40,176 bases of DNA, taken from sequence record PQ850602.1, one strand, 5' to 3'. The stretch is from Escherichia phage EmilieLinder_Bas103. The translations under genes were made by a program, and so were the position numbers. The notes beneath the pieces are model-generated. The model ran no database searches. It saw only the letters and a program-made list of their open reading frames with translations, and was not told the DNA's origin. Of this stretch, positions 10,144-13,792 are shown piece by piece. Numbering within the stretch: the first letter of the stretch is position 1; every line of letters begins with the position of its first letter.

Positions 10144-11205
10144 ATGATGAACATTAAGACCAGCCCATTTAAAGCCGTGTCTTTCGTAGAGTCTGCCATT
10201 AAGAAAGCTCTGGATAACGCTGGGTATCTTATTGCTGACATTAAGTACGATGGTGTGCGTGGTAACATCTGCGTAGACAATACTGCTAACTGCTGCTGGC
10301 TCTCTCGTGTGTCTAAAACGATTCCGGCACTGGAGCACTTAAACGGATTCGATGTTCGCTGGAAGCGTCTGCTGAACGATGACCGTTGCTTCTACAAAGA
10401 TGGCTTTATGCTAGATGGTGAACTCATGGTCAAGGGCGTAGACTTTAACACAGGGTCTGGCCTACTGCGCACCAAGTGGCTCAACAAGAATAACTTTGAG
10501 TTCGACGTTGGCGGTGTACCTCCGCTCAAGGGGTCCAAGGTTGAGTTCGCGTTGGACACCAAACGTCTGAGTGTCAAACTGTACGCTATCCTCCCTCTGC
10601 ACATCGTGGAGTCTGGGGAAGACTATGATGTCATGACGTTGCTCATGCAGGAACACGTTAAGAACATGCTGCCTCTGCTACAGGAATACTTCCCTGAAAT
10701 CGAATGGCAAGCGGCTGAATCTTACGAGGTCTACGATATGGTAGAACTACAGCAACTGTATGAGAAGAAGCGTGAAGAAGGCCATGAGGGTCTCATTGTG
10801 AAAGACCCGATGTGCATCTATAAGCGAGGCAAGAAGTCCGGCTGGTGGAAAATGAAGCCTGAGAACGAGGCTGATGGTGTTATCCAAGGTCTTGTATGGG
10901 GTACGAAAGGTCTGGCTAACGAAGGAAAAGTGATTGGCTTTGAGGTGCTTCTTGAGAGTGGTCGTGTAGTAAACGCCACAAACATCTCTCGCGCCTTAAT
11001 GGACGAGTTCACGGCTAAGGTTAAACAGACCATTAGCTTCCGTGAGGACTTTGAGGACTTCGGGGCCGAACCCGAAGACACCAACCCATACCACGGGTGG
11101 CAGTGCCAGATTAGCTACATGGAGGAAACACCTGATGGCTCTCTGCGTCACCCATCGTTCGTAATGTTCCGTGGTACCGAGGATAACCCTAAAGAGAAAA
11201 TGTAA
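10144..11205 (+). CDS. 1.3: ATP-dependent DNA ligase (gp1.3)
   Basis: 353-aa ORF from MMNIKTSPFKAV...; adenylation lysine motif DIKYDGVRG; matches T7 ligase; ORF track offers upstream ATG 10129. Confidence 0.93.
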   Translation: MMNIKTSPFKAVSFVESAIKKALDNAGYLIADIKYDGVRGNICVDNTANCCWLSRVSKTIPALEHLNGFDVRWKRLLNDDRCFYKDGFMLDGELMVKGVDFNTGSGLLRTKWLNKNNFEFDVGGVPPLKGSKVEFALDTKRLSVKLYAILPLHIVESGEDYDVMTLLMQEHVKNMLPLLQEYFPEIEWQAAESYEVYDMVELQQLYEKKREEGHEGLIVKDPMCIYKRGKKSGWWKMKPENEADGVIQGLVWGTKGLANEGKVIGFEVLLESGRVVNATNISRALMDEFTAKVKQTISFREDFEDFGAEPEDTNPYHGWQCQISYMEETPDGSLRHPSFVMFRGTEDNPKEKM

Positions 11206-11209
11206 TCAC

Positions 11210-11243
11210 ACTGGCTCACCTTCGGGTGGGCCTTTCTGCGTTT
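11210..11243 (+). terminator. Early transcription terminator TE (intrinsic, host RNAP)
   Basis: GC-rich hairpin GGCTCACC-TTCG-GGTGGGCC followed by TTTCTGCGTTT; identical in form to T7 TE. Confidence 0.85.
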
Positions 11244-11258
11244 ATAAGGAGACACTTT

Positions 11259-11414
11259 ATGTTTAAGAAGGTAGGTAAATTCCTTGTGGCTTGGGCAGCT
11301 ATCCTTACGTTTGCATATCTTCTGGCGGTATACCCTCAAGCAGCACTTGTAGTAGTGGGCGCTTGTTGTCTAGCGGCAGCGTGTGCTTGCGTGTGGTGCT
11401 TCGTCAATTGCTAA
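11259..11414 (+). CDS. 1.4: gp1.4-like small hydrophobic protein
   Basis: 51-aa ORF MFKKVGKFLVAWAAILTFAYLLAVYPQ... with RBS aaggag; matches T7 gp1.4. Confidence 0.75.
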   Translation: MFKKVGKFLVAWAAILTFAYLLAVYPQAALVVVGACCLAAACACVWCFVNC

Positions 11415-11434
11415 TACGACTCACTAAAGGAGGT
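11412..11434 (+). promoter_or_regulatory. T7 RNAP promoter phi1.5
   Basis: TAATACGACTCACTAAAGGAGGT. Confidence 0.85.
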
Positions 11435-11441
11435 ACACACC

Positions 11442-11534
11442 ATGATATACTTAATGCCATTACTCATTGTCATCTTAGGATGCCTTGCGCTTCACTATAC
11501 TGACGATGATGATATGCCAGATGGTCACGCTTGA
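11442..11534 (+). CDS. 1.5: gp1.5-like mini-protein (30 aa): hydrophobic N-terminus plus acidic tail
   Basis: MIYLMPLLIVILGCLALHYTDDDDMPDGHA; RBS within phi1.5 (aaggagg); matches T7 gp1.5. Confidence 0.65.
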   Translation: MIYLMPLLIVILGCLALHYTDDDDMPDGHA

Positions 11535-11557
11535 CGACACCACTAAGGAGATACCTT

Positions 11558-11674
11558 ATGACGTACTTAATGCCACTACTGATGCTATTCTTGGTGTCAT
11601 TACTCATTCTCATCCCTGTATATGCTGTACTGCGTGATGATGACGATGATGACACACAAGATGACCACGCTTAA
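11558..11674 (+). CDS. Second gp1.5-like mini-protein (38 aa), tandem paralog
   Basis: MTYLMPLLMLFLVSLLILIPVYAVLRDDDDDDTQDDHA; RBS taaggag 7 nt upstream; same N-terminal MxYLMPLL and poly-Asp tail as 1.5; not in T7 as I recall. Confidence 0.55.
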   Translation: MTYLMPLLMLFLVSLLILIPVYAVLRDDDDDDTQDDHA

Positions 11675-11694
11675 TACGACTCACTAAAGGAGGT
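11672..11694 (+). promoter_or_regulatory. T7 RNAP promoter phi1.6
   Basis: TAATACGACTCACTAAAGGAGGT overlapping the stop of the preceding mini-ORF. Confidence 0.85.
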
Positions 11695-11699
11695 ACTAT

Positions 11700-11960
11700 A
11701 TGTTTCGACTTCATTACAACAAAAGTCTTGAGAATTTCACGGTTCGCCGTGTTGACCGTTCAATCGTATGTGCGAGCGAGCGCCGAGCTAAGTTACCTCT
11801 TATTGGTAACACAGTTCCTTTGGCACCGAGCGTCCACATCATTATCACCCGTGGTGACTTTGAGAAAGCAATAGACAAGAAACGTCCGGTTCTTAGTGTG
11901 GCAGTGACCCGCTTCCCGTTCGTCCGTCTGTTACTCAAACGAATCAAGGAGGTGTTCTGA
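11700..11960 (+). CDS. 1.6: gp1.6-like protein
   Basis: 86-aa [34 protein letters not shown]...; matches T7 gp1.6. Confidence 0.85.
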
Positions 11961-12499
11961 TGGGATGCATAGCTTGCTTAGAGAAAGACGACCGTTATCC
12001 ACACACCTGTAATAAAGGAGCTAACAATATGACCGAACGTGAACAAGATATTATCATTAAGTTGATAGATAATAACGAGGGTCGTACTGGCGACACGTCT
12101 GGTTGCGGCCTGTTCTGTGCTGGAGTACCTTGTGGTGAGTGCCCTGTAACAAACGATGAGAACATTACCTTAGGTGAAATCCGAGCGATGGACCCACGTA
12201 AACATCATCTGAATAAACTTGAGGTAACTCCTACAGACGACCAGCCTTCCTCTGAGCCAATCGAAGGTGTCACTAAGCCTTCCCATTACATGCTGTTCGA
12301 CGACATTGAGGCTATCGAGGTGATTGCCCGCTCAATGACTTGTGAGCAGTTCAAAGGTTACTGCTTCGGGAACATCCTTAAGTACCGACTGCGTGCTGGT
12401 AAGAAGTCCGAACTGGCTTACTTAGAGAAAGACATGGCGAAAGCTGACTTCTATGGGGAACTGTACGAGAAACATAAGGATAAGTGCTATGACGCGTGA
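11960..12499 (+). CDS. 1.7: Nucleoside monophosphate kinase-like protein (gp1.7), N-terminally shorter than T7
   Basis: 179-aa ORF starting [22 protein letters not shown]; start overlaps 1.6 stop; T7 gp1.7 (196 aa) has 17 extra N-terminal residues. Confidence 0.85.
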   Translation: MGCIACLEKDDRYPHTCNKGANNMTEREQDIIIKLIDNNEGRTGDTSGCGLFCAGVPCGECPVTNDENITLGEIRAMDPRKHHLNKLEVTPTDDQPSSEPIEGVTKPSHYMLFDDIEAIEVIARSMTCEQFKGYCFGNILKYRLRAGKKSELAYLEKDMAKADFYGELYEKHKDKCYDA

Positions 12500-12708
12500 A
12501 GAACTTCAAGCCGCATCGGTGAAGCGTAGAGCGCACAGGTTCTATCGGGCATACAAGGCTCTGCGCATGGGTATGCTGATGTTCTCGTTAGGACACAGTG
12601 AATATTGTGATAGTGACCTCCTACCGTTTGCTTATAAGAAGACACCCAGTCTGATTATCAAGGTAGAGGAGTATGAATATTCTGACGACTGTGTTATGGT
12701 GAACCGCT

Positions 12709-12716
<8 letters not shown>
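12489..12716 (+). CDS. Hypothetical protein (75 aa), extra gene between 1.7 and 1.8
   Basis: ORF from ATG 12489 (MTREELQAASVKRRAHRFYRAYKALRMGMLMFSLGHSEY...), overlapping the 1.7 stop and the 1.8 start; no T7 counterpart recalled. Confidence 0.5.
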
Positions 12717-13021
<305 letters not shown>

Positions 13022-13024
<3 letters not shown>

Positions 13025-13044
13025 TACGACTCACTATTAGGGGG
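13022..13044 (+). promoter_or_regulatory. T7 RNAP promoter phi2.5 (A-initiating)
   Basis: TAATACGACTCACTATTAGGGGG; +1 A at about 13039 as in T7 phi2.5. Confidence 0.85.
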
Positions 13045-13093
13045 GGAAGCCTCCCTTTGAGAAACCAAATGAAACCTAAAGGAGATTAACATT

Positions 13094-13792
13094 ATGGCTA
13101 AGAAGATTTTCACCTCTGCGCTGGGTACTGCTGAACCTTACGCTTACATCGCTAAGCCGGACTACGGCAACGAAGAGCGTGGCTTCGGGAACCCTCGCGG
13201 TGTCTACAAAGTTGACCTGACTATTCCCAACAAAGACCCGCGCTGCCAACGCATGGTCGATGAAATCGTGAAGTGTCACGAAGAGGCTTATGCTGCTGCC
13301 GTTGAGGAATACGAAGCGAATCCACCTACGGTAGCCCGTGGTAAGAAACCACTGAAACCGTATGAAGGCGAAATGCCGTTCTTCGATAACGGTGACGGCA
13401 CGACTACCTTTAAGTTCAAATGCTACGCGTCTTTCCAAGACAAGAAGACCAAAGAGACCAAGCACATCAATCTGGTTGTGGTTGACTCCAAGGGTAAGAA
13501 GATGGAAGACGTTCCGATTATCGGTGGTGGCTCTAAGCTGAAAGTCAAATACTCTCTGGTTCCGTACAAGTGGAACACCGCTGTAGGTGCAAGCGTTAAG
13601 CTGCAACTGGAATCCGTAATGCTGGTCGAACTGGCTACCTTTGGTGGCGGTGAAGATGATTGGGCTGACGAAGTTGAAGAGAACGGCTATGTTGCCTCTG
13701 GTTCTGCCAAAGTGAGCAAACCACGCGACGAAGAAAGCTGGGACGAAGACGACGAAGAGTCCGATGAAGTAGACGAAGACGGAGATTTCTAA
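13094..13792 (+). CDS. 2.5: Single-stranded DNA-binding protein (gp2.5)
   Basis: 232-aa ORF with acidic C-terminal tail ...DEDDEESDEVDEDGDF; near-identical to T7 gp2.5. Confidence 0.96.
   Translation: MAKKIFTSALGTAEPYAYIAKPDYGNEERGFGNPRGVYKVDLTIPNKDPRCQRMVDEIVKCHEEAYAAAVEEYEANPPTVARGKKPLKPYEGEMPFFDNGDGTTTFKFKCYASFQDKKTKETKHINLVVVDSKGKKMEDVPIIGGGSKLKVKYSLVPYKWNTAVGASVKLQLESVMLVELATFGGGEDDWADEVEENGYVASGSAKVSKPRDEESWDEDDEESDEVDEDGDF

Follow-up and report, generated by a model that had tools for sequence, protein, structure and literature searches.

The sequence considered here is the 40,176-nucleotide (nt) record of Escherichia phage EmilieLinder_Bas103 (PQ850602.1), the whole of which is referred to below as the window; over its first 25 kb it is ∼98% identical to the BASEL phages Bas104 and Bas64 (JeanTinguely). 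Between gene 1.7 and the downstream gene 1.8 homologue lies an open reading frame (ORF), gene 1.75, which opens with the ATG at 12489-12491, runs for 75 codons and closes with the TAA at 12714-12716 (Table 1). Its start overlaps the end of gene 1.7 by 11 nt, the ATG being placed 8 nt before the gene 1.7 stop codon (TGA 12497-12499), and its final 8 nt overlap the ATG (12709) of an ORF of 39 amino acids (aa). A first-pass annotation, made from the letters of the window, had described an ORF starting at ATG 12489 that overlaps the 1.7 stop and ends at the 1.8 start; this description was borne out by the sequence, and the peptide quoted with it was correct. On comparative grounds, 12489-12716 is very probably a genuine gene of the gp1.75 family, a narrow orphan family confined to certain Teseptimavirus and Kayfunavirus phages.

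The length of the ORF carries little of this argument. The minus strand of the window, which was taken as non-coding because the genes of T7-like phages all lie on one strand (as is the case in the annotated relatives), contains 20 ATG-initiated ORFs of at least 75 aa, so that a length of 75 codons is not above chance and the case for gene 1.75 therefore rests on comparison. Homologues were identified by tblastn in 28 phage records (at least 80% query coverage, 80-100% identity), and a collection of 5.8 billion proteins yielded 15 full-length clusters, each exactly 75 aa long and 76-97% identical; two IMG/VR contigs of ∼39 kb each also carried the gene. Of the 15 fetched loci with gene 1.75, 14 had exactly 75 codons and no indels, the exception being a frameshifted copy in Edwardsiella phage PVN09. 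The ATG, together with AAGGA or AAAGG 8-9 nt 5' of it, was kept in all 16 loci compared, and the 3' junction TATGCTTAA, which holds the ATG of the next ORF, was kept in 13 of the 16; a fourteenth locus differs from it by one base (TAG stop). An upstream start for the same ORF at ATG 12453, which would give 87 aa, was considered and rejected: it has no Shine-Dalgarno (SD) sequence and is unconserved, AV103 having a GTG at a different offset.

Substitution patterns pointed to the same frame. Ratios of non-synonymous to synonymous substitution rates (dN/dS; pairwise Nei-Gojobori estimates, 11 pairs) were 0.02-0.55 in the annotated frame, as compared with 0.37-2.9 in the other two frames at the same sites. 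The annotated frame was clearly the lowest in nine of the 11 pairs, and the frames were nearly alike in two pairs that set a Kayfunavirus against a Salmonella phage (loci L007/L010 and L009/L014). Between the window and AV103, gene 1.75 showed 11 synonymous changes and one non-synonymous change. Variable sites by codon position numbered 16, 18 and 31. It is highly improbable, given these comparisons, that the interval is an ORF arisen by chance in leftover or spacer DNA, or that it works in cis as an RNA or DNA element. Such an origin would agree with the frequency of minus-strand ORFs of this length, with the confinement of homologues to a narrow group and with the one frameshifted copy; however, the purifying selection is mostly particular to the annotated frame, the length is constant at 75 codons across 76-100% identity, and both the SD and the ATG are conserved. 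Furthermore, no RNA structure signal was detected at gene 1.75 (folding z -0.55 versus shuffled sequence), and a promoter and terminator scan gave no signal above shuffled expectation.

The relation to gene 1.8 was examined from both sides of the junction. The first-pass annotation had estimated that ∼190 bp at this place has no T7 counterpart, and a count agreed with it: 12489-12828 spans 340 nt as compared with 147 nt for T7 gene 1.8, leaving 193 nt extra. The 39-aa ORF aligned with residues 21-47 of T7 gp1.8 (NP_041968, PHROG 1312) at 44% identity (E 2e-8) and, judging by this alignment and its profile match, is the true gene 1.8 homologue. The 75-aa product gave no BLASTP alignment with T7 gp1.8 at E ≤100, nor did it match phrog_1312 when compared with the PHROG profiles. 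Thus, gene 1.75 was upheld as a separate gene that is missing from T7. The likeness to T7 gp1.8 is one of setting: both are small, non-essential class II products without assigned function, and the two start codons lie at the same spot relative to the gene 1.7 stop, whereas the proteins share no sequence similarity. That gene 1.75 might be a diverged, longer gene 1.8 and the downstream 39-aa ORF not separately translated, a case that the first-pass annotation had itself raised against its proposal, retains almost no probability: the placement of ATG 12489 and the ATGACG with which gene 1.8 of 64795_ec1 also begins would fit it, but the 75-aa product and gp1.8 do not align, the gp1.8 homologue is the 39-aa ORF, that ORF lies in a different frame with its own ATG kept in 14 of 16 loci, and relatives with 1.8 but without 1.75 exist. 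We regard this explanation, and that of a non-gene, as effectively excluded.

Table 1. Features at and around gene 1.75 in the window (PQ850602.1).
Feature	Coordinates	Strand	Remarks
T7-type class II promoter (phi1.5 equivalent)	11412..11436	+	Exact match to TAATACGACTCACTAAAGGAG; 25-nt repeat with 11672
T7-type class II promoter (phi1.6 equivalent)	11672..11696	+	Identical to consensus TAATACGACTCACTAAAGGAG
Gene 1.7 (nucleotide kinase, DUF3310), 179 aa	11960..12499	+	phrog_2585 E 1e-84; PF11753 E 5e-22
Mosaic block, 3' two-thirds of 1.7 plus 1.75	12116..12716	+	blastn, 90.7% identical to Kayfunavirus K1F
Shine-Dalgarno-like AAGGA	12476..12480	+	8 nt 5' of ATG 12489, within gene 1.7 end
Gene 1.75 coding sequence	12489..12716	+	75 aa plus TAA; accessory protein of an orphan family, homologous to K1F gp1.75
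217-bp presence/absence segment versus 64795_ec1 and ESh1	12496..12712	+	Alignment A3
Gene 1.8 homologue, 39 aa	12709..12828	+	ATG inside last gene 1.75 codons (TATGCTTAA junction); phrog_1312 E 1.3e-20

Although the first-pass annotation had put the ORF forward as an extra one, it had already been annotated elsewhere, and gene 1.75 belongs to a known hypothetical gene family that was numbered in K1F. The K1F record AM084414 labels the homologue '1.75: gp1.75 protein' (CAJ29354.1), and the product is listed as 'hypothetical protein' in Bas104, JeanTinguely (Bas64), AV103, Yanou, Vec13 and others. By tblastn, the window protein matched K1F gp1.75 (AM084414 7940-8164) with 92% identity over 75 of 75 residues (E 5e-40), and the Bas104_0022 protein is 100% identical to it. 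K1F gp1.75 and its homologues (Bas104_0022, bas64_0022, AV103 WPK33062, Yanou ORF16 and Vec13_16) are 75 aa long with 80-100% aa identity, occupy the same place directly after gene 1.7 with the same SD/ATG context and the same 3' junction, and show no material difference from the window copy; none has an assigned function. A survey of the literature on gp1.75, K1F gene 1.7, Bas64/Bas104 and gp1.6/1.7/1.8 brought up no functional study of gene 1.75.

Records of two homologues depart from the annotation seen in the others. In PVN09 (locus L013, 1201-1429) the frameshift falls after approximately codon 16 and the gene, a pseudogene or the product of a sequencing error, is annotated as two ORFs; the second of these is mislabelled 'major capsid protein', a label also borne by protein cluster P0016. 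In SYGE1 (locus L005, 1279-1428) the annotation covers just a 49-aa fragment of gp1.75 that begins at an internal Met, and the junction (∼1421) reads TATACTTAA, a change that destroys the overlapping gene 1.8 ATG and converts the last residue to Thr.

Comparison of loci indicates that gene 1.75 acts as a discrete cassette, present or absent among near-identical genomes and exchanged between two genera. Gene order was constant (1.6 - 1.7 - 1.75 - (1.8) - 2 - 2.5), the most divergent members (SRA assemblies) included. A total of 606 phage records matched the surrounding 3 kb and 210 matched the Kayfunavirus version, yet gene 1.75 occurred in only 28. What sets the window apart from 64795_ec1, its nearest relative devoid of the gene, and from ESh1 is one clean indel (217 bp by coordinate count from the window sequence), the junction of which reads ...TATGACGC followed directly by TTAA..., with a 2-nt GC microhomology; an equivalent presence or absence was seen in Kayfunavirus (alignment A4). 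Exchange between the genera is evident from the 600-bp block shared with K1F, which stops exactly at the 1.75 stop. Elsewhere in the interval the window and K1F are less alike (ligase 78%, gp2.5 67%, endonuclease 72%), and the rest was without detectable alignment by blastn. We infer from this sporadic distribution that gene 1.75 is dispensable for the core lytic cycle. The same distribution supplies natural, isogenic-like plus/minus pairs (window or Bas104 versus 64795_ec1; Vec13 versus LM33_P1 or TH20) that make experiments easy.

A second small cassette, a hydrophobic ORF of 28-35 aa (MLNDVLYFGLICAGVGALLRLMYWAIEVEYGKAK in AV103), lies between 1.75 and 1.8 in AV103, K1F, ESh1 and KM02 and has no copy in the window. 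In both genera its presence is independent of that of 1.75: among Teseptimavirus phages, neither is present in 64795_ec1, only 1.75 in the window, only the hydrophobic ORF in ESh1 and both in AV103, and the corresponding Kayfunavirus states are represented by LM33_P1, Vec13, KM02 and K1F, respectively. The hydrophobic ORF (AV103, L006 1421-1525; K1F, L001 ∼1721-1810; ESh1, L016 1317-1424; KM02, L020 680-766) is membrane-peptide-like and is unannotated in AV103, K1F and KM02. An insertion of another kind was observed in Salmonella phage CHRF_10027, where the product called 'nucleotide kinase' (L007 455-1195) consists of DUF3310 (residues 5-64), an HNH endonuclease (128-169) and a helix-turn-helix (HTH; 201-234), so that the homing-endonuclease-like HNH/HTH module comes after the kinase domain of 1.7 and before 1.75. 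A homing endonuclease seems to have inserted at the boundary of 1.7 and 1.75, the fusion being either a true in-frame one or an error of gene calling, and the slot is therefore an insertion hot spot.

With respect to expression, gene 1.75 belongs to the class II (DNA-metabolism) transcription unit and lies 3' of the phi1.5 and phi1.6 promoters. The phi1.6 equivalent is the nearest promoter 5' of genes 1.6, 1.7, 1.75, 1.8 and 2, the next promoter, the phi2.5 equivalent, begins at 13023, and no terminator-like sites were seen in the scan of 11200-13200. From this arrangement we infer that gene 1.75 is transcribed with 1.6, 1.7, 1.8 and 2, and the overlap of the 1.7 stop with the 1.75 start permits coupling, such that translation of 1.75 may be coupled to that of 1.7. 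Gene 1.7 itself encodes 179 aa in the window, as compared with 196 aa in T7, its first codon corresponding to T7 residue ∼19; relatives differ greatly in the N-terminal part of gp1.7 (111-246 aa) and share a conserved C-terminal DUF3310 domain.

The gp1.75 protein has a mass of 8.9 kDa and an isoelectric point (pI) of 8.6, with charge distributed unequally along its length. The N-terminal 36 residues have a pI of 11.4 (8 K/R, 2 D/E) and the C-terminal 39 residues a pI of 4.3; the first-pass remark that the product is basic at its N-terminus and without obvious domain was thus sound, as searches of Pfam, PHROGs, NCBIfam and PADLOC returned no match at E < 0.06. An AlphaFold2 model built on a 16-sequence alignment (predicted local distance difference test (pLDDT) 80, predicted template-modelling score 0.63) places a helix at residues 3-33, strands at 38-41, 58-61 and 69-72 and a short helix at 42-47, with a block-mean pLDDT of ∼90 for residues 1-40 and 59-79 thereafter. 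In this prediction a long helix, basic in character, precedes a small acidic sheet of three strands. Among the residues found invariant are R13, R14, F18, Y19, Y22, K23, L25, R26, F32, G35, C68, N72 and R73; helix positions 16, 17, 27, 30 and 31 are hypervariable and lie beside the invariant R13, R14, K23 and R26.

Broader searches did not extend the family. At E ≤1, no Pfam family was matched, including Gp2 (PF16857) and gp1.2 (PF10922), nor was any family among the anti-phage defence profiles of PADLOC-DB. A sequence profile search of the PDB returned only uL3 (E 1.1), a word-indexed search of the 5.8 billion proteins only close family members, and an exhaustive hidden Markov model search, over 1.84 billion representatives, nothing beyond the cluster of the family itself; no paralogue was found among all of the window ORFs. 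Using the model as a query, Foldseek recovered only the Vec13 homologue from BFVD (E 5e-9; next E 0.2) and nothing from the PDB at E < 1. Weak fold neighbours were of the Smr, R3H and uS8 types, and a structural match short of significance covered 57-58 aligned residues, the shared part being approximately a single helix against a sheet of three strands.

Our preferred, if tentative, reading of these features is by analogy: gp1.75 could be a class II product, dispensable to the phage, whose ligand is a host factor. The first-pass annotation had likewise named the ORF a candidate of this kind, class II accessory genes around 1.2-1.8 including known host-factor inhibitors, and that suggestion serves as a reasonable prior only. 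The protein would act by binding rather than by catalysis, most likely stoichiometrically, because it comprises only 75 aa, has no motif and presents a dipolar surface. The exposed basic face of the helix may be what binds and modulates a host macromolecule, and the most likely target would be a host protein of takeover or defence. A protein target is favoured because the characterised small, non-essential proteins of T7 work in this way: Ocr, gp0.4, gp1.2, gp2, gp4.5, gp5.5, gp5.7 and gp5.9 each bind a host protein. Gp1.75 resembles the host-factor binders of this group (Gp2/PF16857, gp1.2/PF10922, gp5.7, gp5.9, gp4.5 and Ocr) in its size class, its early to middle expression context and its dispensability, the last judged from the sporadic distribution of the gene in natural genomes. 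The resemblance is one of analogy, as there is no sequence or fold relationship, and several of these binders are acidic DNA mimics whereas gp1.75 is basic at its N-terminus. The combination of invariant basic positions and hypervariable exposed positions on one helix likewise fits a binder of host proteins. Weighing against this reading are the C-terminal third of the model, which is just moderately confident (block-mean pLDDT 59-79), the frameshifted PVN09 homologue, from which it follows that gene 1.75 can be lost or that the record has a sequencing error, and the outcome of a search for proteomics or ribosome profiling data for gene 1.75, in which none were found.

The basic helix could also suit a small nucleic-acid-binding protein, the helix contacting DNA or RNA and modulating replication, recombination or transcript fate in the class II period; we consider this rather unlikely, although it is the strongest of the alternatives. 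The strongly basic N-terminal half, with its 8 K/R and the invariant R13, R14, K23 and R26, speaks for it, as do the DNA-metabolism genes in the neighbourhood (1.3 ligase, 1.7 kinase and 2.5 single-stranded DNA-binding protein) and the weak Smr/R3H/uS8 fold neighbours. However, there is no R3H motif, and residue 16 (H in the window) is variable (H/Q/L/K/G). The C-terminal half is acidic and brings the overall pI to just 8.6, and no HTH, ribbon-helix-helix or zinc motif is recognisable.

A bolder version of the host-factor reading has gp1.75 as a factor of counter-defence or host range whose small fold has not been seen before, spreading as the 217-bp cassette between T7-like genera by neutralising a specific host immunity protein; this we hold to be an outside prospect. 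One form of it is that gp1.75 may mask the adjacent gp1.7 from Avs5-type sensors that gp1.7 reportedly triggers. T7 gp1.7 has been reported as an activator of the defence protein EfAvs5 (PMC11897194), which is a plausible selective reason for a shield.

The shielding idea is shared with a more general proposal, that gp1.75 is a partner of gp1.7 which either regulates this nucleotide kinase or masks it from host sensors, and which is more doubtful still. Gene 1.75 is always directly after 1.7, its start usually overlaps the 1.7 stop, and a single 600-bp block has carried it between genera along with the kinase domain of 1.7. Adjacency alone explains such co-transfer, however; phages whose gp1.7 is near-identical in its C-terminal region (2-5 differences in the last 95 residues) lack gene 1.75, and no gp1.7 residue tracks its presence or co-varies with it. 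Moreover, the HNH/HTH module of CHRF_10027 separates the kinase domain from 1.75, so overlap with 1.7 is not required.

Taken as a discovery, gene 1.75 is an ordinary finding, an already annotated hypothetical gene that forms a neat accessory cassette, of orphan type, in a model group of phages. Few phage groups have been studied as closely as that of T7, and even so it retains several small class II genes without assigned function. Gene 1.75 offers a clean case of these: a conserved, selected and horizontally traded protein of 8.9 kDa with no relatives in 1.84 billion representatives and no structural neighbour.

Further observations concern the promoters on either side of the locus and the ORFs between them. 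Upstream, two tandem gene-1.5-like ORFs (11442-11534, 30 aa; 11558-11674, 38 aa) share the motif MxYLMPLL...DDDD...DxHA, where T7 has one such gene. Identity to T7 gp1.5 is 86% for the first ORF, with which the second shares 57% identity. A copy of the same 25-nt T7-type promoter stands on each side of the pair (11412 and 11672), and both ORFs are annotated in Bas104. Downstream, the phi2.5-equivalent promoter (13023-13050) reads TAATACGACTCACTATTAGGGGGGGAAGCC, in which seven consecutive G occupy the start site; the T7 phi2.5 promoter is one that we take to read ...TATTAGGGAAGA.
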